This document shows positions 10,008 through 55,847 of a stretch of DNA of 64,000 bases, piece after piece; the first letter of the stretch is position 1, and every line of letters starts with the position of its first letter. This DNA is from Candidatus Daviesbacteria bacterium (GTDB lineage: Bacteria; Patescibacteriota; Microgenomatia; Daviesbacterales; UBA10151). The notes beneath the pieces were generated by a model that searched no databases, was not told the DNA's origin, and saw nothing but the letters and a program-made list of their open reading frames with translations. The DNA lies in assembly GCA_016184225.1 (NCBI GenBank), contig JACPDA010000004.1, positions 672,316 to 736,315 on the forward strand, written 5' to 3'. A program made the position numbers and the translations under genes.

Positions 10008-11948
10008 CTAGCGGAAAAGGTCTAAAAGCCTGTCCAAAATGCTCCTTACTGCGGCTATACCCTGAACTGCAGGAGCAGGCTCAGTGGCCGGGGGAGCTGG
10101 TGCCGGAGCAGCCGGAGCTGGTGCCGCCTCCTGTGGGGCAGGTTGGGGAGCGGCCTGCTGCTGCTGTTGTTGCTGCTCAGGCTGCGGTGCCGGAGCAGGA
10201 ACCGACCCACTGCCTCCGGAACCACCACCAGCTGGTGGGGTATAAGAGCCGGAAGAAGGAGCAGTGTAGCTGCCGGAACCACCCCCACTTCCAGCTGGCG
10301 GGGTATAGGATCCTGAACCGGAAGTACCTGAGCACTGACATCTGCTGCCGGTCCAAGTGCAACCTCCTCTGCCACAAGCTACCTCCGGTGACTCATACGT
10401 TCCACCATAACTGCCTGGGCCCGGAGAAGAGGCATAATTCGGATATCCTCCTTGTGAGGTACCTGTCGTTTCGCTTGCTCCAGTGCACTGGCAGGATGAA
10501 TTTATCCAAGAGCAACCCTGTCGTTTCCCGCAAGCAATTGCCGGGCTATCCTTAGAAACACTTGCGCAATCACAACTTGAACCAGTCCACCGGCAACCGC
10601 CAGAAGTACAAGATGATTCCGGGTTTTGTTCTGTGAACGCCGGGGGGGTGTAGGAACGGACAGTCGCAGCGCTACACTGGCAACTTGATCCATTCCAGGA
10701 ACACCCATACCTGCCGCACTCTGCTGCCGGATCCGGTCCGACACTGCTATTGTAATAACCACCGTATCGGCCATAAGATACTTGCGAGGCCTGCTCTGCC
10801 GGAGGCCTGCACTTGTCCGGATTTGCCTTACAGAAATCCTCAAATTCCTGGCGTTTTTCCGAATTTCCAAGAATCTCCGGCGGTCGTCCCTGAGGACACT
10901 GAGCTGGATTGGTGCGGCAGTAAGCTACGTATTCTTGAGACTTTTGGACAGTTTCTTTGGTTTCGCCATAATATCCGCATGAACAGGAATTGCCTGCCCA
11001 GGAACAGTTTGGCGTCCTGTTACACATCTCCACCGGATTGTAATAGCCGCCTCCGGGGGCAATTCCCTTACCCGGATCCTCACCTTTCTTGTAACCGCAA
11101 TCCGCCGGGTTTTGCTGACAATATTTAAGACAGCTCTCAGCCGAATTGCACCCCCCCGGACCGCTGAATGTACCTCCTGAAACTTCAGTAAAACCTTTAC
11201 AAACCTGGAAATTATTGGGGTCTGAGCAAAAAGTTTTGCAAGTGCCCTCTGATTGGCAACCGCCCGGCCCCACCTTGTGCTCCCCACCCCTAAGCCCCAC
11301 CTCCTCGGCAAAAGATTTACATTTACTGGTATTATCCTGCTGAAGGCAAAAAGCCTGGCAGGAATTGGCAGAATCACAACCTAAGACTTCCTTCGCTTTG
11401 TTGATAATTTCCGCTCTGCCCGGATCATTAACCACCCCTGCCGGTATTCCCTGGGATTTGGCAAAGGAGTTACACGTATCATAATTTGCCGGTATCTCGC
11501 AAAAATTTAAACATGCTTCATAAGAATTGCATCCCAATCTTCTTTGCGCCTCCCCTAAAATTTTATCTTTTTCCAAAACAACCGGATCATCTTTGTAAAA
11601 CCCCTTTGATTTGCCGTAATTTATGCAGGTTTTTCCGTTAACCGGATCCTCACAAAAACTTCGACACTCGTAATAAGTACCACAATTTCCCAAATCGGCA
11701 ATCGGAAACTCTACCCCGTAAATTTTGGCCCTGATTTGCGGATCAGCATAATCGCCAATCTTTTGCTCAAAATCATCAATCCCGTCTCTGTTATCATCAA
11801 TAAAAGGACGCCCCTGAGCCGTGGCAGACGGAGATGAGTCTTGTGCTAAAACAGATGAAAAGGAGAGAGTTGCCAGGATGGCTATTCCCAAAAGAAGAAG
11901 CCATTTTCTAACTATATATCCGATACTTAATTTATTTGCAATCATCAT
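10008..11948 (-). CDS. secreted cysteine-rich repeat protein with Gly/Ser-rich and Pro/Ala/Gln-rich C-terminal low-complexity tail
   Basis: Signal peptide (LLLLGIAILATLSFSSVLAQ). At least 4 repeats of GCxSxxxCxxFCxxxxNxxxCxxF and at least 4 repeats of CGxxGCxWxGSxCxC. Then a (SGSYTPPAG)n tract and PAPAPQPEQQQQQQQAAPQPAPQ. Confidence 0.7.
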   Translation of the reverse strand: MMIANKLSIGYIVRKWLLLLGIAILATLSFSSVLAQDSSPSATAQGRPFIDDNRDGIDDFEQKIGDYADPQIRAKIYGVEFPIADLGNCGTYYECRSFCEDPVNGKTCINYGKSKGFYKDDPVVLEKDKILGEAQRRLGCNSYEACLNFCEIPANYDTCNSFAKSQGIPAGVVNDPGRAEIINKAKEVLGCDSANSCQAFCLQQDNTSKCKSFAEEVGLRGGEHKVGPGGCQSEGTCKTFCSDPNNFQVCKGFTEVSGGTFSGPGGCNSAESCLKYCQQNPADCGYKKGEDPGKGIAPGGGYYNPVEMCNRTPNCSWAGNSCSCGYYGETKETVQKSQEYVAYCRTNPAQCPQGRPPEILGNSEKRQEFEDFCKANPDKCRPPAEQASQVSYGRYGGYYNSSVGPDPAAECGRYGCSWNGSSCQCSAATVRSYTPPAFTEQNPESSCTSGGCRWTGSSCDCASVSKDSPAIACGKRQGCSWINSSCQCTGASETTGTSQGGYPNYASSPGPGSYGGTYESPEVACGRGGCTWTGSRCQCSGTSGSGSYTPPAGSGGGSGSYTAPSSGSYTPPAGGGSGGSGSVPAPAPQPEQQQQQQQAAPQPAPQEAAPAPAAPAPAPPATEPAPAVQGIAAVRSILDRLLDLFR

Positions 11949-26273: not shown

Positions 26274-27842
26274 TTAATCCAGCTTTTCGCGCTGGCTCCG
26301 CAGGAATGAAAACCATTGTTCAAAAAAGGCAAAAATGCCCTTAAACGGGGTCTCTATAATAAAATCAAATATATATAAGAAAATATTAATTTGGGTCATG
26401 GTCAGGGTTAACCTTCTGCCGATTTGGATCAGCGGCATAAAGAAAAAGTCAAAAACCAAAGAGCCTAAGTTTTCCTTTTTATCTTTTAAAATATACTTAT
26501 GGGCAGTCCGGTTGATCCGGTAACTGACAAAGGAAACTATTGCCAGGAAGAAGATAAACACCCCTTGGGAAAACGGATTAACTCCCAGCTTGGTTAAAAT
26601 AAATATTACCGCCCCGAAACTTAAAGCAGCGGTGGCCAGCCAGAGCAAAGCAAATACAAACCAGAGCAGAGGATCAATCTTGTTCGGCCTTTTTTTAACT
26701 ATTAAAGGAGTTCCCAACTGCGCAGGCTCGCCGTATAAAATTGTATTGATCTTCCTTAAAATCCGGTAGGAATTTTCCCTACTGGGTGAGGGCATCAAAA
26801 GTCCCACTATAATCATTAAGATAGGTGGAGTCATGATATTGACGATGATGGAAGCCCAATAAGTCCGCCCGTAAAAAAGCCTCTCAAATGCCCCTTCCAC
26901 AAACAAAGCAAAAATAGCCTTGGTGACAAATATAAATATGACGCTTCTGACAATCGCCCTTCTGACTTTTCCGGCAGTGGATTTATAACGGGCATTGCAC
27001 GCGGCCAGTACCTCCGAGCTTAAGTATTCCTCATTGGAAACCAGGCCATAAGCCTTACCGCGGTGTTTCCTTAACACATCATCCAGGATTAAAAAGGGGA
27101 TGGTCCGGTCTTTAATATAAGTATGGATTTTATCTTTGGCAGGGTATTTGAATTGCTGTTCAATTTGGCGATAAGCTGTCAGAAAATGCTCTGCTATCTT
27201 TTCCAATTTCTCTTCGCTTAAAACACCAAAATACTGGATAAATAGATGGTATCGTAAAAATGCCAGGTCATCACTGGCATAAGCCCGCCTCACGGCTATA
27301 AAAACCTGCAGATCCCGGACTTCTTCTGTATCATCGCTAATGCTCACAAGGTCCTTGAAAATCCTAAAGATGAAATTACTCATCACATCTTTGGGATCAT
27401 TAGGTTTTAAGAGATGCTCTATTTCGGAAGAAAGTAAATGCATCATCCATTCATTAATTACTCCTTTGTTTAAGGAATGAGCTTTGTGGATTTTCTCCTC
27501 CAATTTCAGATATAAATCGATTGCTTCCGCTACTTTAGTCACCTGCGATTCAGGAATAGAGGAGTCCGGAAAATAACGAGCCCAAACCAACTCCCTGATG
27601 AGTGGTGCTGCTACTGTTTTGCCGTTTCCACCTAAAATCAGCCTTCTTTTTAAGATTCGCTCAATAGTTGAGCGCAGGATGACTTCGTCCTCCCGGTAAT
27701 CCATGGCGGTGCGGAACTTTTCATACCAGGTAGCCAGTTCTGCCACCAAAGGGTTCACGGAAACAGTCCTATCGTAGTTGGGAGCAGCAGTCCGGTCATA
27801 TGCTGCAACGAGTGCAGTAGATAATTTATTTAATGTGGCCAT
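26274..27842 (-). CDS. hypothetical integral membrane protein (N-terminal soluble ~300 aa, C-terminal 5-6 TM helices)
   Basis: Hydrophobicity pattern only. It may belong to the membrane-embedded family annotated in Pfam as putative site-specific recombinase, which I cannot verify. Confidence 0.4.
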   Translation of the reverse strand: MATLNKLSTALVAAYDRTAAPNYDRTVSVNPLVAELATWYEKFRTAMDYREDEVILRSTIERILKRRLILGGNGKTVAAPLIRELVWARYFPDSSIPESQVTKVAEAIDLYLKLEEKIHKAHSLNKGVINEWMMHLLSSEIEHLLKPNDPKDVMSNFIFRIFKDLVSISDDTEEVRDLQVFIAVRRAYASDDLAFLRYHLFIQYFGVLSEEKLEKIAEHFLTAYRQIEQQFKYPAKDKIHTYIKDRTIPFLILDDVLRKHRGKAYGLVSNEEYLSSEVLAACNARYKSTAGKVRRAIVRSVIFIFVTKAIFALFVEGAFERLFYGRTYWASIIVNIMTPPILMIIVGLLMPSPSRENSYRILRKINTILYGEPAQLGTPLIVKKRPNKIDPLLWFVFALLWLATAALSFGAVIFILTKLGVNPFSQGVFIFFLAIVSFVSYRINRTAHKYILKDKKENLGSLVFDFFFMPLIQIGRRLTLTMTQINIFLYIFDFIIETPFKGIFAFFEQWFSFLRSQREKLD

Positions 27843-27883: not shown

Positions 27884-29035
27884 ATGACTAACGAGGAAAA
27901 ATTTAATTTAATAACCAGGAATTTAGAGGAAACTTTAACTGCAGAGGAGTTAAAAACTCTCATTAATTCTGGTACTCCATTAAAACATTATATCGGCTTT
28001 GAGATTTCCGGAAAAGGTCACATGGGCTGGGTTTTTACAATGCAGAAAATTAAAGATCTGCAGGATGCCGGGGTAGAAATAAACATCCTGCTGGCAGATT
28101 GGCATACCTGGCTTAATAAAAAATTAGATGGAACCTTAGAAACAGCTAAAAAAATGGCCAGGGGATATTTTGAGGAGGCTCTCAAGGCTTGTGTTTTATC
28201 TGCCGGATCAGATCCGGAAAAGATTAATTTTGTCTTAGGCAGTGAACTTTATGAAAAACTTGGTAACGATTACTGGGCCAAAGTAATTAAAGTTGCCAAA
28301 GCTACAACCCTTGCCAGAATGATCAGGTCAACTACCATTATGGGCAGAAAAGAGTCTGAGCTCTCTGACACAGCTATGTTAATTTATCCTGCCATGCAGT
28401 CAGCAGATATTTTTGCCTTAGGAGTTAATATTGCACACGCGGGAACGGATCAGAGAAATGTCCATGTGGTAGCCAGGGAAGCTGCTGCCCAGTTAGGAGA
28501 ACAAAAGCCGATCGCAATCCATCATCATTTGCTGCAAGGCCTGATGCAGCCGGTTTTTACAGAAGACGAAAGAGGAAATAAAATCCTGGATTTGGAAGCG
28601 GCAAAAATGAGCAAATCAAAACCGGACAGCGCAGTGTTTATCCATGACAGCCCGGATGAAATTAAAAGAAAAGTGGGTAATGCCTTTTGCCCGGAAGGGG
28701 AAGTGGAATTTAACCCCATCTTGGACTGGATCAAACATTTAATTTTTTACAATACATCCTTCCGATCCGGGATCGGAATAGATTTGCGATCCGGTAAAGA
28801 TAATGCAATCTTCACCGTGAAGCGTAATCCAAAATGGGGAAGGGATCTGGTTTACAATTCTTATGAAGAATTAGAAAAAGATTATGCGGAGAAAAAATTG
28901 CATCCGATGGATTTAAAAGTAGCTGTAGCAGAATGGCTGATTAAAAAATTAGAACCGGCCAGAAAATACTTTGAAGATCCAAAAAGAAAAGCTGCTTTGG
29001 AAGAGATTGAGAGACTAACTACAAAATTGACCTAA
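27884..29035 (+). CDS. tyrS: tyrosine--tRNA ligase, archaeal/eukaryotic type, with in-frame REP insertion
   Basis: HIGH-region variant YIGFEISGKGHMGW...ILLADWHTWLN matches the archaeal TyrRS pattern (YIGFEPSGKIHLGH...ILLADLHAYLN), plus KMSKS. Extra segment SFRSGIGIDLRSGKD is encoded by the REP at 28758-28798. Confidence 0.75.
   Translation: MTNEEKFNLITRNLEETLTAEELKTLINSGTPLKHYIGFEISGKGHMGWVFTMQKIKDLQDAGVEINILLADWHTWLNKKLDGTLETAKKMARGYFEEALKACVLSAGSDPEKINFVLGSELYEKLGNDYWAKVIKVAKATTLARMIRSTTIMGRKESELSDTAMLIYPAMQSADIFALGVNIAHAGTDQRNVHVVAREAAAQLGEQKPIAIHHHLLQGLMQPVFTEDERGNKILDLEAAKMSKSKPDSAVFIHDSPDEIKRKVGNAFCPEGEVEFNPILDWIKHLIFYNTSFRSGIGIDLRSGKDNAIFTVKRNPKWGRDLVYNSYEELEKDYAEKKLHPMDLKVAVAEWLIKKLEPARKYFEDPKRKAALEEIERLTTKLT
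28758..28798. repeat. REP-like element, family A, inside tyrS coding sequence
   Basis: CCTTCCGATCCGGGATCGGAATAGATTTGCGATCCGGTAAAG is in-frame and collinear with the copy at 24763-24800. Confidence 0.8.
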
Positions 29036-29040
29036 TTAAC

Positions 29041-29479
29041 CTAATTTCTAATTGACCTAAAGAATGACTAATGACAAAATTACCAAAAAATTTGATCTGG
29101 AAGACAGAACTGCTAAATTTGGAGAAGGTGTGATTAAATTGTGTCAGAAGATACCGAGAGGACCTATTACTGATCCACTAATTACACAACTGGTGAAATG
29201 TGGTACCAGCGTAGGAGCTAATTACTCCGAGGCAGATGATGCGGAAAGCAGAATGGATTTTAAACATAAGATCGGGATCTGTAAGAAGGAAACTAGGGAA
29301 GCTAAACATTTTATCAGGATGATTGTGGTTGCTGTATCGGTTTTAAAAGAAGAAGCCAAACCGTTGTGGCAGGAAGCTAAAGAATTAAACTTGATATTTA
29401 ACTCTATTTATAAGAAAGTAAAGTAGGCGGATGATTTTAGACATTTGGTCATTGAGATTTGATTAGAAATTAAAAATTA
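29041..29479. repeat. perfect 13-bp inverted repeat pair (CTAATTTCTAATT ... AATTAGAAATTAG) bracketing the four-helix-bundle gene
   Basis: Left arm 29041-29054 and right arm 29467-29479. Additional CCTAATT/AATTAGAAATT direct iterations on both sides. Confidence 0.6.
29064..29426 (+). CDS. four-helix-bundle protein (23S rRNA intervening-sequence protein family, TIGR02436-like)
   Basis: Size and the characteristic pattern FGEGVIKLCQKIP...QLVKCGTSVGANYSEA...EAKHFIRM. Confidence 0.75.
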   Translation: MTNDKITKKFDLEDRTAKFGEGVIKLCQKIPRGPITDPLITQLVKCGTSVGANYSEADDAESRMDFKHKIGICKKETREAKHFIRMIVVAVSVLKEEAKPLWQEAKELNLIFNSIYKKVK

Positions 29480-29591
29480 GAAATTAGAAATTTATCGTAT
29501 TATGATGTACTCAAAGAAATTTAAAATTTTCTGGATAATTTTATCCGTAATTGCCGGGATAGCCATTATCCTTTTTTCTCTTTTGCCCCTC

Positions 29592-29933
29592 TTAACCAGT
29601 TTCTGAAAGTGATCCTGCTTGGGCTTTTTCTTTCTCGTACTCTGCCAAAAATCCGATGGCAAAATCATCCAGGAATTTTTGGGTTTCTTCAGCTGCGCTT
29701 CTGCCAGTTCTTAAATTATAAAGCATTTTAATTTTCTCATTGGCTGACTCCTGATCAGGGCAAGCTTCAATTGCCTGCATATCTTCTTCTGTAAAACTAG
29801 CCATACCAGCGGTATAAATTCTGGCAAAGGCAGATTTGGTGAGTTCTGTTAAAAATTGGCTAACCTGCTCGTCTGTCGAACCCTTCTCTTTCATAACATC
29901 CACCACTTTTTGCATTTTAGTTTTTTCGTCCAT
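29592..29933 (-). CDS. hypothetical acidic protein (113 aa)
   Basis: ORF co-directional and adjacent (5-nt gap) to the 645-aa ORF. No family recognised. Confidence 0.4.
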   Translation of the reverse strand: MDEKTKMQKVVDVMKEKGSTDEQVSQFLTELTKSAFARIYTAGMASFTEEDMQAIEACPDQESANEKIKMLYNLRTGRSAAEETQKFLDDFAIGFLAEYEKEKAQAGSLSETG

Positions 29934-29938
29934 AAGTT

Positions 29939-31876
29939 TTATCCCAAAGCTCCTAGGACAGCACTAATGCCTTCTTTGTTCAAAATCTTAAGTTTTTGAC
30001 CGGCAGGGATATAACGTAAAGCCGCCAGAAGTTTTCGCAAAGCTTCTTTATCTCCTGTTTGGGCTTTAGCCACTAAGTCATTTATCTCTGTAAGTCCCAC
30101 CGGAAACGGGCTTTCCGGGATATTATGATTAGCAGCCATCTGCTGCCACATATCTGTCAGCATATCATTATTAGCCGCAATATGTGCCCCCAGCATTGGA
30201 GCATCAGCACCGGTCCAGGTGACCTGATATCCTGCATCTTGGAGCATTTGGCCGACATTACTACCTTGGGCAATTGCCTGGTCGACAAATAAATCAGGTG
30301 CCGTCTCCAGAGCAGAAGAAACATTTTGTGTCAAGGCTTCTGTCACTTGAGTTTGTTCATTAATAGCTTGTTGAGCAACTTCAGTCAATTGCTGGTGGGT
30401 GGCATCTTGAGCCAGCCAGGATTCAAAGGCATTTTGGCCTGCTTCAGCCCCACCACTTACATCATAAACGGCATTTGCTTTCTCTTCCAAAGCATGCTGG
30501 ACCGCCTGATGTGCTCTATCTATGGCTGCCTGATCAATATCTGCCAGGGTGTGATTGCTTTGCTCTAAGGCTTTTTTGACAACTTCATCCTGCATTGAAG
30601 GCAAAACTTTACCTACCTCTGCTGCCTTATCCTCTAGTAGCAGATCAATAGCACCCGTTTCTGTCGGCAGGGGAGCGGCTGGAGACGACACTAAAGGAGC
30701 GGGCGGAGGTTGTACAATGTCCGGACTACCAGCTTGGGCAGGCGTTTCAGGACCAAACGGGGCAGCAGCCGGCGGTTGTGCCAAGGTAGGTGCGGGGGTG
30801 GGAAAAGCTGTAACGGGAGGGACTTCGGTTGGGGTAGCTAAAACTTCTAAATTACCACCCGGTAAACCACCCGGTCCTGCTGCAATAGTAGGTGTAGCAG
30901 TTGGGCTGGCTATTGTTTCAGTTGCTGGTCCTGGTGCTGCGGTGGCAGTAGGTATCTTAGGTGCTTCACCCCCCACCAAACCAGCTGGCATCTTGGGTGG
31001 AGGGGTCCCTGTTGCTGTTGCTGTAAATGCTTCTTTGCCTACTTCAGAAACAATACTACCCAAAGATAGGTACATTGCTCCGGCAGATAACCCTAAAGCA
31101 AAATCCTTAATTCTTTGGTGAGCCTTACCGTATTTTTCAGCAATCTTAGCCATCTCTTCATCCATACTTGCCGGATACAATTTGAGTAGTCTTTGCATTC
31201 GGGCCTCTTCACGGGCGCGGGGCAAATTCAGTACCAAATGTGTACCTTGGGTAATGGCTAAATTCAATCCGGCTTTAGCAAATCCTTTTAACGGGAGTGG
31301 TAAAGCTATAAAAGCCGCGCTTTCAGCAGCACCGACTCCAAACCCGATCCTCCATAACCAATCCTTTTGAACAAAATTTTTGGGATTTAAATTCTCAGCC
31401 CAATGTCTAAAGCCAATTCCAACAGCTTGTTTAAGTTCGCCACTGCTAATAACCTGACCAATCCCGCCTGCCTTTTCTCCAATCCCACCTCCAATCCTTC
31501 CTGCTGTATCACCAATGGTCCGACCGACCACCCCTGCAGCATCCCCAACTTTACCTAATCCTTTTTTGAAAAAACCTGGCCGCGCAGCTGATACACCTGA
31601 TAATTGTTCTTCTAAGGCGCCCTCTCGCAGTTCCCTTCTTTTTTCTTCAGGCGATCCAGCTCCACCGCTCTGATCGCCTGTGCCAGGATCAGGAAAGGTT
31701 TGCTCCATAAACTTATCAGCAGCTTGTTCAGCAGCACCTGGATTAACTGATGATGGTTCTCCATCAGGCATTGGTATTCTCCCTCTTTCCATAATAATGC
31801 AGGATATACCCCTCTTGTCAAATTTGCAAACAGTTCCTAAGAATAGGATAATAAAAAATATATGGAAATGGACCAA
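29939..31876 (-). CDS. large hypothetical protein with Gly-rich N-terminal region, central Pro/Ala/Thr-rich linker and helical C-terminal domain
   Basis: Long ORF. The internal Met at 31792 (MERGRIPM) is a possible true start. No family recognised. Confidence 0.45.
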   Translation of the reverse strand: MVHFHIFFIILFLGTVCKFDKRGISCIIMERGRIPMPDGEPSSVNPGAAEQAADKFMEQTFPDPGTGDQSGGAGSPEEKRRELREGALEEQLSGVSAARPGFFKKGLGKVGDAAGVVGRTIGDTAGRIGGGIGEKAGGIGQVISSGELKQAVGIGFRHWAENLNPKNFVQKDWLWRIGFGVGAAESAAFIALPLPLKGFAKAGLNLAITQGTHLVLNLPRAREEARMQRLLKLYPASMDEEMAKIAEKYGKAHQRIKDFALGLSAGAMYLSLGSIVSEVGKEAFTATATGTPPPKMPAGLVGGEAPKIPTATAAPGPATETIASPTATPTIAAGPGGLPGGNLEVLATPTEVPPVTAFPTPAPTLAQPPAAAPFGPETPAQAGSPDIVQPPPAPLVSSPAAPLPTETGAIDLLLEDKAAEVGKVLPSMQDEVVKKALEQSNHTLADIDQAAIDRAHQAVQHALEEKANAVYDVSGGAEAGQNAFESWLAQDATHQQLTEVAQQAINEQTQVTEALTQNVSSALETAPDLFVDQAIAQGSNVGQMLQDAGYQVTWTGADAPMLGAHIAANNDMLTDMWQQMAANHNIPESPFPVGLTEINDLVAKAQTGDKEALRKLLAALRYIPAGQKLKILNKEGISAVLGALG

Positions 31877-34381
31877 GAATCAGCTCCTGCGGCCCCTAGA
31901 AATCCAAGGGAAGTCTGGAACCAGTTAAAACAGGACCAGAGAGCGGGAAATATTCCTGCTGTTCTTCAAGGAATTTACACCCTTGACCAAATCTCTATCC
32001 CTTCTTCCCAAGACCCTAACCAGGAAATACCACTTACTCAAACTCCACAACTTGAGGCCTATCTTAAAACTGTGGTCGGCCCAACAAAACATGTCCAAGA
32101 AGCACTCCGATTGAATCTTCAAAAAGCAGATGAAGAAAAAGACTCACGGTATGCGGAAAAAACCCTTCGTCTGGCAGAGCTGCTGGGGATAGACCTGCCT
32201 TTAACAGCAGAGCCTCCACCCGCAGAAGCCCCTGCCCCAGATATCTTACCAAATCCATTCCTAGAGCCGAAAACAGCAGAACTAGTCACCCCAGCTGGAG
32301 CAGAACACGCCATACCAGAAACAGCACCAGCCCCAGGAACACTTCCAGGACAAACTCCTGTCTTGCGAGAAGTAGAAAAAATACCCCTGTCCCCAGAACG
32401 CCTAGTTGCGGAAGAGACAGCAATCCAACAGGTACAGGGTCTAGGCAACCAAATGACACGTTTTGGTCTGACTGAACAAGAACTTATTAACTTACAGGCA
32501 GAAATCAGTAAGATGTCTGATGCCGAACTCCAGCATTTTACCGAACGGATCATCCGGGAAAGGTATCGGGTTCAGACAGATAAACTTGGGGTCAGAATGC
32601 CCCAAGGGGATTTCTTGCCGGTTGACGGCCAAAAAATTACATCTTTTTGGGATGAAGAAGGTACTATTCAACCATCGCATGCAGATCCGGAGGAGGTAGA
32701 AAAAAGGCTTCCCAAAGTAGGTTTTTGGGGGGGCAATGATGGGGCTTTAACTTTTGTCGGACCCGACGGGAGGTATTGGGTGGGGTTTGGATCAGATGAA
32801 AATATCAAGGCTCTTGAGGCCGCCGGATACAAAAATTCTGGTCAACATGGTGTTGACGCAAATCGGGTAAATAATATCATGAATGCAGACTGCGCCTTTG
32901 CTGACCCGGATTTACAAACACAGTGGGAAACATACCTTAGTCCTACTGACTCCTTGATCCAGCCGGATAAAAGGGAAAATGAGGCACTCGAAGAAAAAGC
33001 AGAGAGATTATTGAGGAGTGTAACCAGGGCAGAGTTTGCTTCATTCCAAGAATATAGTTTAGTTTCAAACCGCTCTGGAAAAGGTTTTGTCAGCATGAGA
33101 CCGCAGCCCTATGTAGGCCGTGAATATCCACATAATTCATATCCGGAGAACTATCAAGACTCTGATCTAATAAATAGTGAATTTGGGAAGCGTTCCTGGT
33201 ATATTCCTATTTCAATAGCTCGCTTGATTGATCCGGCTCTTGTTACAGAAAGAATGGGGCAGCCTGATACTGAATGGGGAGAACTATATTGTGTAGTGGG
33301 GAGAAGGGAGGGAAGGGTAATTATTCAAGGAGGGGGTAAAATGCATCCGGATTTTGCTCATAGACCAAATTATAGTTCCTTCAAATTAGTATTTGATTCA
33401 GAAGATGCTGCAAATGAATACATCAGTTGGTTGGTAAAAGATCCTAAAGAGGCGTATGGTCCCGTACTTAGGCGGGCAATTGGAAACTATGATGAGCAGG
33501 GGAATTTCAGGCAGGCATTAATACCTCCAAAAGAATTTAATATGGGAAAAGAAAGATTTTCTGATCCATTTTCAGTTGTACCAAATAAAGTTTTAGTAAA
33601 AGACTTAAGAACATCCGATGTTACTTCAACCACAGCAATTCCTAACCAAAGACCCTTTGGAAGTGATGTAGTGTTGGAAGAAATTCCCCAACCTCAACCA
33701 GCCGACTCCGAGCAGATTACTTTAACTCCAGAAATCCGCACTCAACTTGAACCCCTCTTTAACCAGCTTCGCGAAGCCTATGCATCAAAACCAGAAGAAA
33801 CGAACGCTACTTATAGACAACATATAAATTATCTTGAAGAAAGAATAGAAAGACTTCTAGGACTGCAGGCAGATGCTAATAGTAACACCCGTAAGGCAGA
33901 GTCTAACAAACATGCATATGGCTACACTAGCGATAAACCTTTGTTTAGACTCCGCAGAATTATAGAAACTGCAGAAAGAAAACCTGGTACCCTCGAGAGA
34001 TTTTTTGATCAGTTTTCTCCAGATATGCAGGAAGCACTCAGACAATATTATGAAGCACAACAGGCAATTAGTAGGGGTGAAGATGGAAAATGGGGTGATT
34101 CTGATCAGGCTCAACGCACCCTTTTGGATTTGATATCACAACAAATAGGCACCAGTGAAGACCTAAGTATTAATTCTATCAAATTTGAAGAAAGGAAATC
34201 TGAATTTACTGCTCTTCTTGAAAAAGGCAGAATCATACCGATCGAAGACTTAGCCCAAGCCTTAGCTGCAAGAAACCGTGCTGAAATTGCCATGCTTCGA
34301 TCCTACTATGACATGTTTCTAAAAGAAGCGGATTTCTTCCTGGAAGCAGCTAAAAAAGCAAAGATTAACCTCGAAACCTGA
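31862..34381 (+). CDS. large hypothetical protein (839 aa) with Pro-rich N-terminal third
   Basis: Long ORF divergent from the 645-aa ORF. No family recognised. Confidence 0.45.
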   Translation: MEMDQESAPAAPRNPREVWNQLKQDQRAGNIPAVLQGIYTLDQISIPSSQDPNQEIPLTQTPQLEAYLKTVVGPTKHVQEALRLNLQKADEEKDSRYAEKTLRLAELLGIDLPLTAEPPPAEAPAPDILPNPFLEPKTAELVTPAGAEHAIPETAPAPGTLPGQTPVLREVEKIPLSPERLVAEETAIQQVQGLGNQMTRFGLTEQELINLQAEISKMSDAELQHFTERIIRERYRVQTDKLGVRMPQGDFLPVDGQKITSFWDEEGTIQPSHADPEEVEKRLPKVGFWGGNDGALTFVGPDGRYWVGFGSDENIKALEAAGYKNSGQHGVDANRVNNIMNADCAFADPDLQTQWETYLSPTDSLIQPDKRENEALEEKAERLLRSVTRAEFASFQEYSLVSNRSGKGFVSMRPQPYVGREYPHNSYPENYQDSDLINSEFGKRSWYIPISIARLIDPALVTERMGQPDTEWGELYCVVGRREGRVIIQGGGKMHPDFAHRPNYSSFKLVFDSEDAANEYISWLVKDPKEAYGPVLRRAIGNYDEQGNFRQALIPPKEFNMGKERFSDPFSVVPNKVLVKDLRTSDVTSTTAIPNQRPFGSDVVLEEIPQPQPADSEQITLTPEIRTQLEPLFNQLREAYASKPEETNATYRQHINYLEERIERLLGLQADANSNTRKAESNKHAYGYTSDKPLFRLRRIIETAERKPGTLERFFDQFSPDMQEALRQYYEAQQAISRGEDGKWGDSDQAQRTLLDLISQQIGTSEDLSINSIKFEERKSEFTALLEKGRIIPIEDLAQALAARNRAEIAMLRSYYDMFLKEADFFLEAAKKAKINLET

Positions 34382-34416
34382 ACTTCCAACACCGGAGAAA
34401 ATCCAGCCTGCAACTC

Positions 34417-34483
34417 ATTCGAGTCTGAGCCTGAGGGCTTCGGCCGTGAGCTCAGCCGAATCGGCTCATCCCTCAGAGTCGAA
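34417..34483. other. GC-rich structured region with nested imperfect inverted repeats (probable terminator or structured RNA)
   Basis: CGAGTCTGAGCCTGAGGG ... CCCTCAGAGTCG outer arms and an inner AGCCGAATCGGCT palindrome, directly 3' of the 839-aa ORF. Confidence 0.4.
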
Positions 34484-34570
34484 GACCTGAAAGGTTGAGG
34501 CAAAGGTTGACGCACGAAATTCTAACAAAAATAGCCTGTTTTTAAACTCAATTTGTGCTAAAATATAGTT

Positions 34571-34873
34571 GTGAAAAAATTACCGGCCTTCTTAAAAAAA
34601 TACTTCTGGGAGATTGACTTTGATGGACTAAATCCGAAGAAATATCCTTACTACATTATCAAAAGAATTCTAAATTATGGAGATGAACGTGCGACCGGAT
34701 GGCTCTTCAGAAATTTTGATAAAGAAGCCATGATATATTCCCTTCAAAATCACCGTGACTACACGAAACGGGCAGCAATATACTGGGGCAAATTTTTCAA
34801 AATGCCGAAAAGAAATATCATGTACTTTAAAAAAGGCTTCCCCAATCCACCCGTACGGCTCTGGCCATATTAG
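34571..34873 (+). CDS. hypothetical basic protein (100 aa)
   Basis: ORF immediately upstream of recG. No family recognised. Confidence 0.35.
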   Translation: MKKLPAFLKKYFWEIDFDGLNPKKYPYYIIKRILNYGDERATGWLFRNFDKEAMIYSLQNHRDYTKRAAIYWGKFFKMPKRNIMYFKKGFPNPPVRLWPY

Positions 34874-34890
34874 GTTGTATAATTAAGCCC

Positions 34891-36975
34891 ATGGAACTTA
34901 AAACCCCGCTTTCTGCTCTTACCGGCATTGGATCCGGGCTTTTATATAAGCTGAAAAGGCTTAACTTAAATACTGTAGAGGATTTGATTTATCATTTTCC
35001 CTTTAGGTATGATGATTTTTCCAATGCCACCTCTGCCCTGGATGCCAAAATAGGGGAGAATGTAACCCTGCAGGGGGAGATTTGGTCCATCCAAAATATC
35101 TATACCAGGTCCAGGAAAATCATTACCAAAGCTATCTTTAATGACGGCACCTCGCCCATAGAGCTCACCTGGTTTAACTCTTCCTGGCTGATCAAGCAGA
35201 TCCAGACAGGTGACAGGCTACAGGTTTCAGGCAAAATCAGTAAATACAAATCCAAATTATCAATTATTGCCCCGCGCTGGGAAAAACTGAATAGCTTTCA
35301 GTCATCAGCTATCAGTCATCAGACTTTGCACACAGGAAGGTTAGTTCCTGTTTATCCTGAAACAGATGGCTTAAGTTCTAAATGGCTTAGGACCAAAATA
35401 GACAAGCTGCTGCCGGAAGTAATAGATCAAATTAGTGATCCTCTACCTGATCAAATCCGGGATAACATGATGCCGCTTAATGATTCCATACAACAAGTAC
35501 ATTTCCCGAAAACTCTAGAACAGGCAGAAAAAGCCCGGGAAAGGTTAGGCTTTGATGAGCTGTTTTATGTCTCTTTGGCCACCCAAAAAGCCAGGGCAGA
35601 GTGGAAGAAAAAACCAATTGTTGAACCATTAAAAATTAATCCTGCAGATATCAGAGATTTTGTGGGTAAACTTCCCTTTAAATTGACCGGCGCCCAAGAA
35701 AAAGTCTTAACGGAAATTCTGGATGACCTGAAGAAAAAACAACCCATGAACAGGTTAGTCCAGGGAGAAGTAGGCTCCGGGAAAACAGTGGTAGCCGCCA
35801 TTATTGCCTATTTGGTCCATAAAAATAACCTGCGTACCTTGTTTATGGCCCCCACGGAAATTCTGGCCTTCCAACACTTTGAAACTCTTTCCAAACTCCT
35901 CGAACCATTCGGGGTCAAAGTGGGAATATACACAGGAAGTAAGAAGAGTCTAGAGTCAAGAGTCAAGAGTCAAGGGAAGAAACAATCTAGACTCTCGACT
36001 CTAGCGACTAGCCACTATCCCGATATAATCATCGGCACCCATGCCCTTTTGTCCCAAAAACTTTCCACCGACAATGTCGGACTAATCATCATTGACGAGC
36101 AACAGCGTTTTGGGGTCGAGCAAAGAACACTTTTGCGGGGAAAAGCCAAAATTCCGCATTTCCTGACCATGACAGCCACCCCCATCCCCAGGACAGTAGC
36201 CCTAACCTTGTACGGTGATCTGGATATGTCAGTCATTGATGAGATGCCGGTGGGAAGACAAAGGGTCAAAACCTATGTAGTACCCGAAAAAAAGCGGCTT
36301 GATTCATATAAATTTATTGCCAAAAGGGTAGCTGAAGGAGACCAGATTTATATCATCACCCCCTTAATAGAAGCATCCGAGACCCTAGTCAGCGTCAAAG
36401 CAGCCAAAGTAGAGTTTGAGAAACTAAAGAAGGTTTTTCCTTCTCTTAATCTGGACCTGCTTCATGGCAGAATGAAAGGAGTTGATAAAGATCAGATAGT
36501 CAAGGATTTTCGCTCCGGCAAAACCCAGATTCTGGTTTCCACCTCTGTGGTAGAAGTGGGCATGGATAACCCTAATGCCACCATTATTGTCATTGAAGGC
36601 GCAGAACGATTCGGCCTGGCCCAGCTTCACCAACTTCGAGGAAGAGTTGGCAGAGGAGAAAAGCAGTCTTATTGCCTGCTTTATACATCAAATTATTCAA
36701 GCGATGAAAGAAGAAGATTGAAATACCTGGAAACTACTTTTGATGGTTTGAAACTGGCTGAGCTGGATTTAAAGATCCGGGGCAGCGGGCAAATTTTTGG
36801 GACTTTGCAGTCAGGCAGATTTGAGTTCAAGATAGCGAGCTTCCATAATATCACACTCCTGGAGAAAACCAAGCAGGCAGCCAAAGATCTGTTGGACTCT
36901 GATCCCGCTCTTGACAAACACCCGCTGCTCAAGGCAAAATTACAGGATATCTCATCAGCAGTGATGCCTGACTGA
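34891..36975 (+). CDS. recG: ATP-dependent DNA helicase RecG with in-frame REP insertion
   Basis: Wedge-domain N-terminus, helicase motifs (GEVGSGKT, DEQQRFG, TATPIPRT, QLRGRVGRG). Extra segment SKKSLESRVKSQGKKQSRLSTLATS is encoded by the family-E REP at 35944-36012. Confidence 0.9.
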   Translation: MELKTPLSALTGIGSGLLYKLKRLNLNTVEDLIYHFPFRYDDFSNATSALDAKIGENVTLQGEIWSIQNIYTRSRKIITKAIFNDGTSPIELTWFNSSWLIKQIQTGDRLQVSGKISKYKSKLSIIAPRWEKLNSFQSSAISHQTLHTGRLVPVYPETDGLSSKWLRTKIDKLLPEVIDQISDPLPDQIRDNMMPLNDSIQQVHFPKTLEQAEKARERLGFDELFYVSLATQKARAEWKKKPIVEPLKINPADIRDFVGKLPFKLTGAQEKVLTEILDDLKKKQPMNRLVQGEVGSGKTVVAAIIAYLVHKNNLRTLFMAPTEILAFQHFETLSKLLEPFGVKVGIYTGSKKSLESRVKSQGKKQSRLSTLATSHYPDIIIGTHALLSQKLSTDNVGLIIIDEQQRFGVEQRTLLRGKAKIPHFLTMTATPIPRTVALTLYGDLDMSVIDEMPVGRQRVKTYVVPEKKRLDSYKFIAKRVAEGDQIYIITPLIEASETLVSVKAAKVEFEKLKKVFPSLNLDLLHGRMKGVDKDQIVKDFRSGKTQILVSTSVVEVGMDNPNATIIVIEGAERFGLAQLHQLRGRVGRGEKQSYCLLYTSNYSSDERRRLKYLETTFDGLKLAELDLKIRGSGQIFGTLQSGRFEFKIASFHNITLLEKTKQAAKDLLDSDPALDKHPLLKAKLQDISSAVMPD
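35944..36012. repeat. REP-like element, family E, inside recG
   Basis: AGAGTCTAGAGTCAAGAGTCAAGAGTCAAGGGAAGAAACAATCTAGACTCTCGACTCTAGCGACTAG. Confidence 0.8.
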
Positions 36976-43127: not shown

Positions 43128-44939
43128 CTACTTAACTTGGTAAGTTCCTTTCACCAGTGAATATGATCCTGAAGGGCCGGAAGTAAACATGGTGCTGGTC
43201 AAGCCGGTTTCATAATCTATCACCGAGTTATTAATTAGCTTGATCTTCCAAGCTGTTAATTCTTTAAAGGAGTTGCCCGTACCGGGCTGGATAATACCAG
43301 TACTGGCATAATAAACTCCCGTGTTGCCATTACTATTTACCTCTATTGCCGACTCATCATTAGTTCTTGAATCAAAAGTAGTTAAAACCATCAACAAGCT
43401 GCTGCCTGTCCCCGTACCATTCAGATGGTTATTGCTATTTAACTCAACCTTCCCGTCCACTATAATTACTCCTGATGTTGCTCCGTAGCTTGTATCAAGT
43501 GTTAATCTGTTATTACTATTTAGTATCAGATCACCGGTTATCCAAATAGGGGTCTTTATACTCACCCGGCACCCGCTATTAAAAGTGACATTGCCGATAA
43601 TTTTTTGGGAATTGAGGCTGCTGACACAACTGCTTATATTGCCTGTACTCTGACCATTTTCCTCTGCAATTTGCTTCCAACTGGCGACGTTGGCATCGGA
43701 AATTGGGAAAACTTTCGGTGGCGGATCGGCAGAACCCGGGTAAGAGGTCCCTCCTACGGTTGAACTGATGATTGTTTGGTAGTAGGCATCTTGACCAATA
43801 ATTAAATTTTCAATTATATTGGCATGGATTTCTCCTCCCACAGTCATTTTATTGCTGCCGGCTCTCACTGACGTAGGCGATCCGCCCAGAAAGGACTTAA
43901 AACTTAAGTCTCCCGGAGGGTTAAGTAAATTCCAGGTGGGGTTTCCGGTTGACCAATTGGGAGACCACCTGGGCAGCCCCCTGGAGTAACTTTGGGCCAA
44001 ATCAGATTGCCAGGACCAGTAATTGGTATTATCAGAGGGGGTATCAATCATTAGCCAGTAAGTGGTATTTGCTTGTATCTGAGGGGAGGAATTAAAGGCG
44101 ACATCAATCCACCCATAAGAAGAAGTCACTAAACTGCTGTAAAGCGTGCCTTGCGCCAAAACACCGTTTTTATCAGGCGCGCCGTCTTTATCTTGCATGA
44201 TTCTCACTGTAGCATCCGGTGGATTGCCTATCTTTTTTATCTTGATGGAAGCCTTATTTAATAAGCCATCTGCGGCAGGTTTTAGGCTTTGGGCAACGTC
44301 AAACCGATCCTCACCGCTCACTGTTTTACCAAAAGTAAAGTCCTGGCAGTTGCTATCCGTGCAGTCTGTTTCCTGGTCAGACTCCGGTTCCGGCCCGCCG
44401 GCTACCCAAACATCCCCGGTGATTTGGTTACTGTTTTCGGCAGTGATGTTGCCATTTGAATAAATGGACCCTTCCACTATATTACTATTGCCCAATTCCA
44501 GGCCGCCGTCTCCTACTTGCAGTCCGTATACAAAGGCTACGCCCACCCCCGCTGTTGACTTGATACTGATTGTTCTTTTGGCCCTGGCTGCTGTTTTATT
44601 GGGGATATAGCCGGTTGATTGGATAACCTTGACTCCGGCATCCTGGGAAATAATGGTAACAGAATAAGATCCCTCACCAAAAGTGGTTTCCGTTTCTCCT
44701 GTGTAGCCTCCGCCCGTCCTGTTTAGGGAATTTAGCGCCTTATCCACCCCGGCTTCAGCTAAGGCTGTGGCGGCTTCTGCCTCAGCTGCATACTGGGCAT
44801 TTTGATAATAAATTTGCGCCCCGGCAATCACCGATAAAACGGTAAACAACACCACGCCCAAGGCAACAATAACCACTACCACAATCTGTCCCTTTTCCTC
44901 TAATTTAATCATTGCGTAAATTTGCCTCCGAAGTAGCAA
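43128..44939 (-). CDS. large pilus-associated protein (N-terminal hydrophobic helix, beta-rich Asn/Gly/Ser/Thr C-terminal domain), possible tip adhesin
   Basis: Position at the head of the pseudopilin block. N-terminal TM segment and repetitive beta-helix-like NSNN/TGxG stretches. No family recognised. Confidence 0.35.
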   Translation of the reverse strand: MLLRRQIYAMIKLEEKGQIVVVVIVALGVVLFTVLSVIAGAQIYYQNAQYAAEAEAATALAEAGVDKALNSLNRTGGGYTGETETTFGEGSYSVTIISQDAGVKVIQSTGYIPNKTAARAKRTISIKSTAGVGVAFVYGLQVGDGGLELGNSNIVEGSIYSNGNITAENSNQITGDVWVAGGPEPESDQETDCTDSNCQDFTFGKTVSGEDRFDVAQSLKPAADGLLNKASIKIKKIGNPPDATVRIMQDKDGAPDKNGVLAQGTLYSSLVTSSYGWIDVAFNSSPQIQANTTYWLMIDTPSDNTNYWSWQSDLAQSYSRGLPRWSPNWSTGNPTWNLLNPPGDLSFKSFLGGSPTSVRAGSNKMTVGGEIHANIIENLIIGQDAYYQTIISSTVGGTSYPGSADPPPKVFPISDANVASWKQIAEENGQSTGNISSCVSSLNSQKIIGNVTFNSGCRVSIKTPIWITGDLILNSNNRLTLDTSYGATSGVIIVDGKVELNSNNHLNGTGTGSSLLMVLTTFDSRTNDESAIEVNSNGNTGVYYASTGIIQPGTGNSFKELTAWKIKLINNSVIDYETGLTSTMFTSGPSGSYSLVKGTYQVK

Positions 44940-54134: not shown

Positions 54135-55847
54135 CTAGTCCTGGGCTACTCTCAGCACCTCCTCCATAGTAGTTATCCCTTCCAAAACCTTTAAATACCC
54201 GTCCTGTTTCATGGTAATCATGCCTGCTGCCACAGCAGCTTGTTCAATGCTGCCGGATGAAGCATGCTCCAGCACCAATTTGGAAATTTCTTCCGTAATG
54301 GAAAGTATCTCAAATATCCCAACCCTGCCAACGTAGCCTGTATTGCCACAAAATGGACAGCCTTTGCCTTTAAAAAGCTTCAGAGTAGTGCTGCCGGAGG
54401 GGAGAATTTTACCCAAAACCGCCTTTATGTTTTCAACTACCTCCGGTGGTGCACTAAACTCTATCCTGCAGCGCTGGCAAATCTTCCTGACTACCCGCTG
54501 CCCCACCACGGCATTCAAAGCTGAAACCAGTAAAAATGGCTCCACTCCCATATCCAACAGCCTGGGCGGAGCGCCGGAGGAGGAATTAGTATGAACGGTA
54601 GAAAAAACCTGATGCCCGGTTAAGGCTGCCTGGATAGCCAAATCTGCAGTCTCAGTATCTCTGATCTCACCGACCATGATTATGTTAGGGTCTTGCCTGA
54701 GAAAGCTGCGAAGGGCCGAGGCAAAAGTTAAACCAACCTGGGTATTGACTTGCACTTGATTGACTCCGGGGATTTGATACTCAACAGGATCTTCAATTGT
54801 CACTATGTTTACCTTTGTAGTAGAAATCTTCGTCAGGATGGAATAAAGGGTGGTAGTTTTTCCGCTGCCGGTCGGGCCGCAGATCAGGATAATTCCATGA
54901 GGCCTGAGGAGTTGGGTTTCCAGACTTTTTAAAGAATTCCCCCGTAGTCCGAGTTCCAAAAGGGACGGCGCCCCTGTTGATTTAGGCAATAACCTCATTA
55001 CCACCTTTTCCCCGAAAACAGTAGGCACAGTGGAAATACGAAGGTCTACCACATTTTGTCCGAAGGTAAAAGTAAACCTGCCGTCTTGAGGTAATCTTTT
55101 CTCGTCAATTTTCAAAACGGAAAGGATCTTAATCCGGGAAACCAGGGCGTCGTGTACGCCTTTTGGGAGCAGGATTTTTTCCTGTAAAATACCGTCAATC
55201 CTGTAGCGTACCCTGGTCCGATCCTCCTGGGGCTCAATATGGATATCAGAGGCTCGGCTCTTGATGGCGTATTCCAAAAGCTGGTCTATGATGTTGGAAA
55301 CAGGTGCCTCGCGTAGAATTTCCGGACCGGTTTGTATTTGTTCTTCCGGCCTGACAGCTGCCACTTCCTTTAAGGCTGATGTTACCTCCGAAGTTAAGTT
55401 TTGGGAATATTGGTCGGAAATGGTTTTAAGGACATCTTCGGCCAGGGCTAAAAAGGGTTTGACGCGCAGGCCGGCCCGCTTTTCCACAAACTCGGTAATT
55501 TGAATATCCAAAGGGTCGGCCATCGCCACCCAAAGTTCATCATTTTTTTTATCGAAGGGGATGATTACATAGCGACGGGCTGCCGCTTCTGGCACTAAGT
55601 TTAAGATATCTGCAGCAATGGCTTTACCTTCAAGCTTAATATAAGGAACGTTCAGGATCTGGGCTTTTGCCTCCGTAATTTTATCAGTAGGTATTTGATA
55701 CTGCGCAAGAATTTTCTCAATAGGCTGGCCGGAGTTAATACTTTCCAGCTTAATCGCAGCCAACTGGTCGGCATTTATCAATTTCTCCCTGAATAAGATC
55801 TCTTCCAGGGAAGAATCAGGCGCACTTTGGGCAGGTATATTGGGCAT
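54135..55847 (-). CDS. pilB: type IV pilus assembly ATPase PilB (GspE family)
   Basis: GspE N-terminal domain, Walker A GPTGSGKTTT and tetracysteine CxxC...CPFCGNTGY. Confidence 0.9.
   Translation of the reverse strand: MPNIPAQSAPDSSLEEILFREKLINADQLAAIKLESINSGQPIEKILAQYQIPTDKITEAKAQILNVPYIKLEGKAIAADILNLVPEAAARRYVIIPFDKKNDELWVAMADPLDIQITEFVEKRAGLRVKPFLALAEDVLKTISDQYSQNLTSEVTSALKEVAAVRPEEQIQTGPEILREAPVSNIIDQLLEYAIKSRASDIHIEPQEDRTRVRYRIDGILQEKILLPKGVHDALVSRIKILSVLKIDEKRLPQDGRFTFTFGQNVVDLRISTVPTVFGEKVVMRLLPKSTGAPSLLELGLRGNSLKSLETQLLRPHGIILICGPTGSGKTTTLYSILTKISTTKVNIVTIEDPVEYQIPGVNQVQVNTQVGLTFASALRSFLRQDPNIIMVGEIRDTETADLAIQAALTGHQVFSTVHTNSSSGAPPRLLDMGVEPFLLVSALNAVVGQRVVRKICQRCRIEFSAPPEVVENIKAVLGKILPSGSTTLKLFKGKGCPFCGNTGYVGRVGIFEILSITEEISKLVLEHASSGSIEQAAVAAGMITMKQDGYLKVLEGITTMEEVLRVAQD

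Follow-up and report, generated by a model that had tools for sequence, protein, structure and literature searches.

Here we examined a block of three genes, A, B and C, in a 64,000-nt stretch of DNA (the window, as we call the whole of it) that represents a core chromosomal segment of a Candidatus Daviesbacteria bacterium, a member of the Microgenomates within the Candidate Phyla Radiation (CPR). The reading that we favour, with a probability of about 0.35, is that the block is a lineage-specific, fast-evolving and envelope-associated cassette, which is fixed between tyrS and recG in Daviesbacteria. We regard as established that the genes are real, that they are kept in synteny, that their products are modular and hypervariable, and that they lack known folds; A, B and C belong to no described family or system.

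An initial annotation had described three open reading frames (ORFs) of 113, 645 and 839 aa, the first two co-directional and nearly abutting and the third divergent from them. This description was confirmed in part. All three are present in the ORF list at the following positions, A and B lie on the minus strand with a gap of 5 nt, and C lies on the plus strand; the genes are real, and two details were wrong. Gene C is identical to the NCBI hypothetical protein HYU45_03965 (837 aa, Candidatus Daviesbacteria), which is encoded on a contig of 770 kb.

29592..29933, minus strand: gene A, the 113-aa ORF
29939..31771, minus strand: gene B, 610 aa with ATG 31771 as its start; the longest ORF begins at TTG 31876 (645 aa)
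31772..31861, no strand: divergent intergenic region of 90 bp with back-to-back promoter-like sites for B and C
31862..34381, plus strand: gene C, 839 aa; the NCBI call has 837 aa, from the second ATG

Ratios of non-synonymous to synonymous substitution (dN/dS), calculated by the method of Nei and Gojobori for the window genes against their orthologues, were 0.04-0.09 for A, 0.07-0.14 for the C-terminal head of B, 0.33 for residues 203-598 of C and 0.28 for the N-terminal domain of C. Values of 0.04-0.33 indicate that all three are under purifying selection, and hence that they are genuine genes and not chance ORFs.

A variable cassette at a fixed position

The arrangement was compared among ten distinct loci, namely the window, L001, L002, the L004 group, L006, L007, L010, the L011 group, L014 and L015. 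A gene of 104-111 aa follows B in all ten, with a gap of 2-6 nt in every locus, and wherever a locus reaches beyond the start of B, in eight of eight cases, the divergent side encodes proteins that begin with ND1 and/or D2, two modules of C that are described below. The gene arrangement is thus conserved, a point that the initial annotation had left to be checked across related genomes. The order tyrS, A, B, divergent genes for ND1 and/or D2 proteins, optionally an LCP (LytR-CpsA-Psr) gene, and recG was found in the window, L001, L002, L004, L006, L007, L010, L011 and L013. In the related loci the LCP gene usually stands beside recG, and a sister ND1-LCP protein of 920-970 aa is encoded between the variable genes and recG in L004 (2060-4828), L006 (1141-4002), L010 (474-3359) and L011 (355-3252). 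The window locus has one divergent gene, as against two or three in its relatives; it carries no LCP gene in 34382-34890, nor was one present among the scanned large ORFs of the window, and a four-helix-bundle gene and a DUF6922 gene stand at its two edges.

Among the compared genomes, the flanking genes are roughly equidistant from each other (tyrS 75-86 %, recG 80-95 % and a 522-aa neighbour 81-86 % identical), whereas the cassette, hypervariable across genomes with 76-88 % identical flanks, diverges several-fold faster and occurs in at least two types, type 1 in the window, L004, L006, L007 and L011 and type 2 in L001, L002 and L010. Identity within type 1 amounts to 80-94 % for A and 70-88 % for the B head; between the types, it falls to 41-48 % for the B head and to 22-26 %, in a forced alignment, for the small proteins. 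The type does not follow the flanks, as the closest tyrS of L004 (type 1) is that of L010 (type 2), with 86 % identity. For this pair the flanks are 81-88 % identical, compared with about 24 % for A, 37 % for B, 37 % for the ND1 protein and 47 % for the D2 protein. ND1 of the window is closest to that of type-2 genomes (55-57 %), yet A and B of the window are of type 1, which suggests recombination at the divergent promoter. The type of the small protein pairs with the type of B, and of the indirect evidence for a joint function of A and B this pairing is the strongest.

None of the three proteins gave a match at the curated cut-off in Pfam or NCBIfam, or anything at E < 1e-4 in PHROGs (best match E 3e-4 over 28 residues) or PADLOC (best match E 0.007, 12 bits), in scans that covered A, B, C and about 25 proteins of the loci or their relatives. 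Sequence and profile searches of PDB with B, C, ND1, the A family and D2-D3 returned nothing credible. Relatives are few: a word-indexed search of 5.8 billion proteins found four of C and seven of B, an exhaustive phmmer search with C against 1.84 billion representative proteins gave 71 matches at E <= 1e-3, and one JGI metagenome scan yielded four loci for B. No relatives of B or D3 were found in GTDB representative genomes, where exact short patterns were needed and the result is no proof of absence, or in IMG/VR with the patterns used. The term 'dark matter' chosen in the initial annotation fits the block: it has no family match, and neither PDB nor BFVD contains a significant structural neighbour of the confident D2-D3 model.

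The three proteins

The initial annotation let the starts of the 645-aa and 839-aa ORFs overlap. This overlap is an artefact, and B most likely starts at ATG 31771 (610 aa), 90 bp from C, and not at TTG 31876 (645 aa). This follows from a GGGAG Shine-Dalgarno-like site directly upstream of the ATG, from the best promoter-like site on the B strand (-35 TTGACA 31821-31816, 16-nt spacer, -10 CATTAT 31799-31794, 10/12 matches), which falls between the two candidate starts and hence downstream of the TTG, and from the public gene call for B (P0005), which has 610 aa. With this start B and C are separate, and 31772-31861 becomes a divergent intergenic region, in which C has a promoter-like site of its own (-35 TTGCAA 31824-31829, -10 GATAAT 31847-31852). 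All such sites are consensus matches only, and a scan of 29000-35000 gave 15 of them compared with 9.7 +/- 3.1 in shuffled sequences.

In the following list the residues of B are numbered from ATG 31771, and identities are mean pairwise values among B homologues (alignment A2).

31367..31771, minus strand: residues 1-135, poorly conserved, Gly-rich with GxxG runs, predicted disordered, predicted local distance difference test (pLDDT) < 50
31037..31366, minus strand: residues 136-245, conserved hydrophobic block, 51 % identity
30647..31036, minus strand: residues 246-375, Pro/Ala/Thr/Gly stalk, predicted disordered
29942..30646, minus strand: residues 376-610, predicted helical C-terminal region
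29942-30331, minus strand: head, the last 130 residues, where the family is most conserved (78 % identity as against 30-59 % elsewhere)

The architecture proposed for this protein in the initial annotation, a Gly-rich N-terminus, a Pro/Ala/Thr linker and a predicted-helical C-terminal part, was upheld. Residues 1-100 contain 21 % Gly and show 30 % mean pairwise identity; the stalk, with a pLDDT of about 27, is made up of 24 % Pro, 20 % Ala and 15 % Thr (59 % together) and differs in length among the homologues; and residues 376-480 are helical and 59 % identical. The hydrophobic block is rich in invariant Gly, Ala and Pro residues and contains candidate membrane helices at 142-160, 163-181 and 224-242, a region that is helical in the structure model as well; every homologue has one or more Kyte-Doolittle maxima of 1.4-1.8 within the block. 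As the loop between the second and third helices has a net charge of about +3, we infer a topology with three probable membrane helices, the N-terminus inside and the C-terminus outside, which would place residues 1-135 in the cytoplasm and the stalk and head outside the membrane. The AlphaFold model of B, which was built from 7 sequences, is all-helical and unreliable (pLDDT 41.6), and the head has no sequence relative in PDB (best E 0.88 in a profile search). A LysM-like reading of segments of the head, and of a segment in longer B homologues, was dropped, since it had no Pfam support and the head is predicted to be helical.

Gene A encodes an acidic protein of 113 aa without a hydrophobic segment and is probably translationally coupled to B, which lies 5 nt upstream. 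It has 14 close relatives of 96-111 aa and nothing else, and a mixed profile of both small-protein types retrieved 23 small proteins; for A there is no family match in Pfam or NCBIfam, and for the type-2 proteins no Pfam match at the curated cut-off. A match of the A-family profile to staphylococcal protein A constructs in PDB (E 2.5e-6) was rejected as a repeat-summed helical artefact, in which no single stretch passes. On the opposite strand, a strongly hydrophobic 34-aa ORF, MMYSKKFKIFWIILSVIAGIAIILFSLLPLLTSF (29502-29606, plus strand), runs towards A and shares 15 nt with the 3' end of that gene; a promoter-like site is found for it at 29478-29506. In its place the sister loci have, after the small gene, a co-directional ORF of 64-102 aa with a hydrophobic segment, of which no remnant is visible on the minus strand of the window locus.

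Gene C was said in the initial annotation to have a Pro-rich N-terminal third and no recognisable motifs. The Pro-rich spacer is indeed present, preceded by 115 residues that form a conserved domain, and the protein as a whole resolves into four modules, which were delimited by BLAST and phmmer and each of which has its own set of relatives.

31862..32206, plus strand: ND1, residues 1-115, conserved domain (BLAST and hidden Markov model, HMM)
32207..32467, plus strand: Pro-rich spacer, residues 116-202, roughly 60-90 aa, candidate fusion scar
32468..32956, plus strand: D2, residues 203-365, two helices and a beta-beta-beta-alpha unit, 'FVGPDGRYWVG..N..AL..AGY'
32957..33646, plus strand: D3, residues 366-595, alpha/beta, conserved 'IIQGGG.H.D...R..SSFKLVFD'
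33674..34378, plus strand: D4, residues 605-839, repeat-type module (three copies in P0004) that looks helical from its sequence

The protein lacks a signal peptide as well as any hydrophobic segment (the Kyte-Doolittle value peaks at 0.75), and no kinase domain was found in it with Pfam or NCBIfam. ND1 has no second copy in the window as judged with the ND1 HMM. Elsewhere it also heads LCP proteins of 922-971 aa, a Pkinase-like protein of 625 aa and proteins of 800-860 aa in the sister loci; one of the ND1-LCP proteins has an Amidase_3 domain in addition, and that of another genome a second LCP-like segment. ND1 of C is 25-30 % identical to ND1 of the sister LCP proteins (HMM E 1e-23 to 1e-37). 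Behind ND1 these proteins have a Lys/Arg cluster, then a hydrophobic stretch some 18 residues long and, after a Pro/Thr linker, the LCP domain. Enzymes with a signal-anchor are laid out in this way, and ND1 would accordingly lie on the cytoplasmic side. The LCP catalytic domain itself (PF03816 / TIGR00350) was matched only in these neighbouring ND1-bearing sister proteins and not in A, B or C. Two other likenesses of ND1 were discarded: a match to the N-terminal region of the type III secretion translocator AopB (E 0.016, 18.5 bits) is a helical, low-information alignment at chance level, and an N-terminal domain common to ND1, the L002_552 group and three L009 proteins had an hhalign probability of about 1 %.

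The ND1 and D2 proteins are encoded by separate adjacent genes in L001, L004, L007 and L010. Residues ~170-208 of C are similar to the ~40 residues at the end of the ND1 gene that stands separately upstream in sister genomes (local alignment scores 52-62; shuffles gave a mean of 35, sd 6 and a maximum of 53), and the residues after ~208 align with the N-terminus of the sister downstream gene. This suggests that C consists of ND1 and, after an internal deletion, the end of the upstream gene, joined in frame to the downstream gene.

D2 heads the second divergent gene in sister loci, and its core is found singly or in tandem in other Patescibacteria proteins; D3 occurs also in proteins of 250-400 aa. 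A model of both modules (residues 195-605, trimmed alignment of 59 sequences) reached a mean pLDDT of 84.9, with 270 residues at >= 90, and D3 appears in it as two beta-meanders with packing helices. Foldseek gave no match to the D2-D3 model at E <= 1e-3 in PDB or BFVD; no ordinary housekeeping fold, which would have counted against the initial annotation, was found there. The 'QGGG' loop of D3 is near-invariant across the family and the adjacent Cys and His vary; a catalytic Cys/His dyad was rejected on this ground, and D2 and D3 look like binding or regulatory modules, not enzymes. No sequence match to PF07411 (DUF1508 / UPF0339, YegP-like) was obtained with C and 67 relatives.

The company that these modules keep in other loci hints at signalling or protein-modification partners, by links that are few and weak. 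A D3 protein, P0015, is encoded in a row of three genes that also includes one for a JAB-like protein (Prok-JAB E 4e-4, short of the cut-off); the D2-repeat protein P0079, from a Patescibacteria metagenome-assembled genome (MAG), adjoins a proteasome-domain protein and lies near a large serine recombinase; another D2 protein adjoins an APH/fructosamine-kinase gene; and in P0002, D2-D3 are fused to a C-terminus that reads as kinase-like. The ND1 protein L007_625 has a weak Pkinase match (E 4e-7, 30.1 bits against a cut-off of 31.7). Further observations were made on these relatives. In L009 (156-5424, plus strand), the products of three co-directional genes, of 429, 687 and 640 aa, have N-terminal regions of 120 aa that are roughly similar to each other and look helical from their sequence, the first product carrying the JAB-like motif (HSHP...S..D) and the third D3. 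In L008 (2595-10856), the gene for a 575-aa protein that combines DUF6941 with a proteasome-subunit domain (26 bits, above the cut-off) is divergent from that for a 951-aa protein (HUV42861.1, from a Patescibacteria MAG) in which D2 occurs twice, and a large serine recombinase is encoded four genes away. The closest relative of D2-D3 of C, P0002 (L001 5559-7745), has another C-terminal region in place of D4, in which residues ~440-728 show kinase-like motifs (G-rich loop, AIIKVAK, DRRPDT, IIDFS) that Pfam and NCBIfam do not detect; this C-terminus may be a divergent kinase or pseudokinase.

Possible function and alternative readings

How an envelope-associated cassette might work can be outlined as follows. 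B would span the membrane with three weak Gly/Ala-rich helices, from an N-terminus inside to a C-terminus outside, and its stalk of 130 Pro/Thr/Ala-rich residues would reach through the wall and present the strongly conserved helical head at the surface, where it may bind a conserved ligand, for example a wall polymer, the S-layer or a partner protein. A, which is small, acidic and cytoplasmic and is made together with B, probably binds the cytoplasmic parts of B, as suggested by the 5-nt gap and by the change of its sequence type with that of B. C would be a soluble cytoplasmic mosaic, which probably arose by deletion of the interior of an upstream ND1 gene and in-frame fusion to a downstream D2 gene. 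From the position of ND1 at the N-terminus of LCP wall-glycopolymer ligases, ahead of a probable membrane anchor, we infer that ND1 could be a docking domain that brings LCP or amidase, kinase-like and D2/D3 scaffold proteins to one membrane site, probably B/A. The recurrence of D2 proteins together with kinase-fold proteins also speaks for this reading.

Several points weigh against this proposal. It draws on no homology with a characterised protein. The hydrophobic segments of B are weak (Kyte-Doolittle 1.4-1.8, one with a Glu) and could be buried helices of a soluble protein, and the poor B model leaves the fold of the head unsupported. The small proteins of type 1 and type 2 are not demonstrably homologous (hhalign probability 0.5 %), and their 22-24 % identity in alignment A1 may result from forcing; the evidence for a physical link among A, B and ND1 is indirect at most, and as the window locus has no LCP gene, the link to the envelope rests on sister genomes. 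Moreover, a conserved surface head is not what a simple arms race with host or phage predicts.

The initial annotation had suggested host-interaction or effector proteins of an episymbiont, or a novel system, and this interpretation is supported in part. Spelled out as a secretion or effector system, ND1 and D2 would be the N-terminal trafficking domains of polymorphic effectors, B the conduit and A a chaperone, with kinase-like, JAB-like, D3 or helical-repeat modules as cargo that is exported or delivered to the host. We consider this possible and rather unlikely. It would account for the common N-terminal domain with shuffled C-terminal modules, the hypervariability of the cassette, the enzyme-like cargo of the relatives (the Pkinase match of L007_625 and, next to a D3 protein, the Prok-JAB match in L009), the likeness of A to secretion chaperones in size and charge, and the weak match of the ND1 profile to AopB, were that match not at chance level. 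The missing signal peptide of C was counted for it as well, and against the host-interaction idea in its original form, for which the mosaic architecture and the hypervariability speak. However, the gene lists of the ten loci contain no secretion ATPase (FtsK/SpoIIIE-type included), no channel-forming family and no immunity-like small gene, no toxin domain was found in the 67 relatives or the locus proteins, B has only two or three weak hydrophobic helices, and ND1, which precedes an ordinary-looking signal-anchor in LCP enzymes, probably stays cytoplasmic. A novel system as such is plausible. One specific form of it, in which B and A are a new membrane apparatus that recruits, and possibly exports or displays, rapidly shuffling ND1- or D2-tagged proteins (with LCP or amidase, kinase-like, JAB-like, D3 and helical-repeat modules) at the host or phage interface of an episymbiont in at least two deeply divergent recombining types, and which would be a targeting or secretion system of a new kind, we judge unlikely.

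It is improbable that the block serves in conflict or defence, as a variable island that senses and counters phages or competing cells, in which B would act in the membrane as sensor or effector and the C-type proteins would signal or modify. The locus is hypervariable and mosaic, with signs of recombination between conserved flanks, and D2/D3 relatives adjoin JAB-like, proteasome-like and kinase-fold genes and once a serine recombinase. Against this, the cassette occupies the same position in every relative and is not patchy, no PADLOC model matched, no nuclease, NTPase or other typical defence effector is present, and within a type, purifying selection on A and on the B head is strong. It is very improbable that the block is what remains of a prophage or another mobile element that entered between tyrS and recG. 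The G+C content over 30-32 kb, 48 % compared with about 40 %, could be taken as a foreign signature, and a D2-repeat protein lies near a large serine recombinase in another Patescibacteria genome; the rise in G+C, however, coincides with the Pro/Ala/Gly-rich coding segments of B, the position is occupied in all related genomes, the locus has no tRNA, relevant Rfam match, repeat or integrase, and PHROGs gave no significant match and IMG/VR no relatives. That A, B and C are spurious or decaying ORFs without function, as the absence of annotation anywhere, the fusion or deletion scar in C and the long low-complexity stretches might be taken to mean, is hardly credible given the dN/dS values, the intact ORFs in 10 loci, the confident D2-D3 model and the 78 % conservation of the B head. 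The rest of the probability we assign to functions that we cannot name.

Neighbouring genes and known systems

On one side of the block lie the ATP synthase operon, the 522-aa ORF, tyrS and the four-helix-bundle gene; C is followed by the DUF6922 gene, recG and ORFs with rpmF-, nusB- and rnc-like translations, and a type IV pilus ATPase gene, gyrB and Mur ligases are found further along the window. The neighbours named in the initial annotation were verified, as the four-helix-bundle gene (29064-29426, plus strand) matches TIGR02436, the 23S rRNA IVS protein family, with 62 bits, and the best model for the tyrS neighbour is NF006330 (418 bits, compared with 125 bits for the bacterial TIGR00234). 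The four-helix-bundle gene and the DUF6922 gene (34571-34873, plus strand) flank the cassette only in the window genome, are absent from the sister loci that reach those positions, and look like small insertions at the cassette borders. The 522-aa ORF (26274-27842, minus strand) is kept beside tyrS in all related genomes with 81-86 % identity; it has no Pfam or NCBIfam match, and on the strength of its hydrophobic C-terminal half we read it as a probable membrane protein.

Two further ORFs encode probable surface proteins, one of 903 aa (4762-7473, plus strand), in which ~230 residues are internally duplicated and which is hydrophobic over a stretch close to the C-terminus, and one of 646 aa (10008-11948, minus strand) with many repeated Cys-containing modules, a Gly/Ser/Tyr-rich region and a poly-Gln/Pro/Ala tail. 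These Pro-, Gly- or Cys-rich ORFs were considered as paralogues of the cassette genes and found to be unrelated to A, B and C. For a 603-aa ORF (43128-44939, minus strand), some 9 kb away from the gene of the type IV pilus ATPase (T2SSE, 54135-55847), Pfam gave nothing at E <= 1e-5.

The CPR (Patescibacteria) have small genomes, in which roughly half of the genes lack an assigned function and unannotated conserved clusters are common; to our knowledge, how CPR cells build their envelope and attach to hosts is largely unknown. The locus offers here a concrete and bounded target, a cassette of four to five genes at a fixed chromosomal address, and D2 and D3, with their confident models, could be defined as new domain families. 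If the docking or the secretion reading is true, the cassette would show that ultra-small bacteria organise envelope enzymes or effectors in a manner not described before; otherwise, what has been obtained is a clean description of new lineage-restricted protein families.

Among known systems, type VII secretion finds no echo in the block, as WXG100 and LXG are absent from the Pfam matches of A, B, C and the type-2 small proteins, including the listed sub-threshold ones, and the only similarity to a type III translocator or class II chaperone is the ND1-AopB match, which is not significant. LXG or Rhs-type toxins and the 'polyvalent' proteins of mobile elements are polymorphic or mosaic multi-domain proteins, and the cassette resembles them in its conserved N-terminal modules, its shuffled C-terminal modules and its rapid turnover between close genomes; unlike them, it is chromosomally fixed and has no recognised trafficking domain, toxin domain, immunity gene or secretion machinery. 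With the LCP ligases C shares the homology of ND1 to the N-terminal domain of the sister-locus proteins, but C has no LCP or amidase domain and no membrane anchor. MapZ, TonB, TolA and RodZ are envelope-spanning anchor proteins, from which B differs in having no sequence match in Pfam, NCBIfam or PDB, in having probably three helices instead of one, and in its partner gene A, which has no counterpart there. In architecture alone, and with the topology of B as proposed above, B nevertheless shows the same order of a cytoplasmic N-terminal part, a membrane anchor, a long Pro-rich or low-complexity spacer and a conserved C-terminal domain. The C-terminal region of B is predicted to be helical, as is the extracellular part of MapZ, and kinase-fold genes are found nearby in the sister loci.

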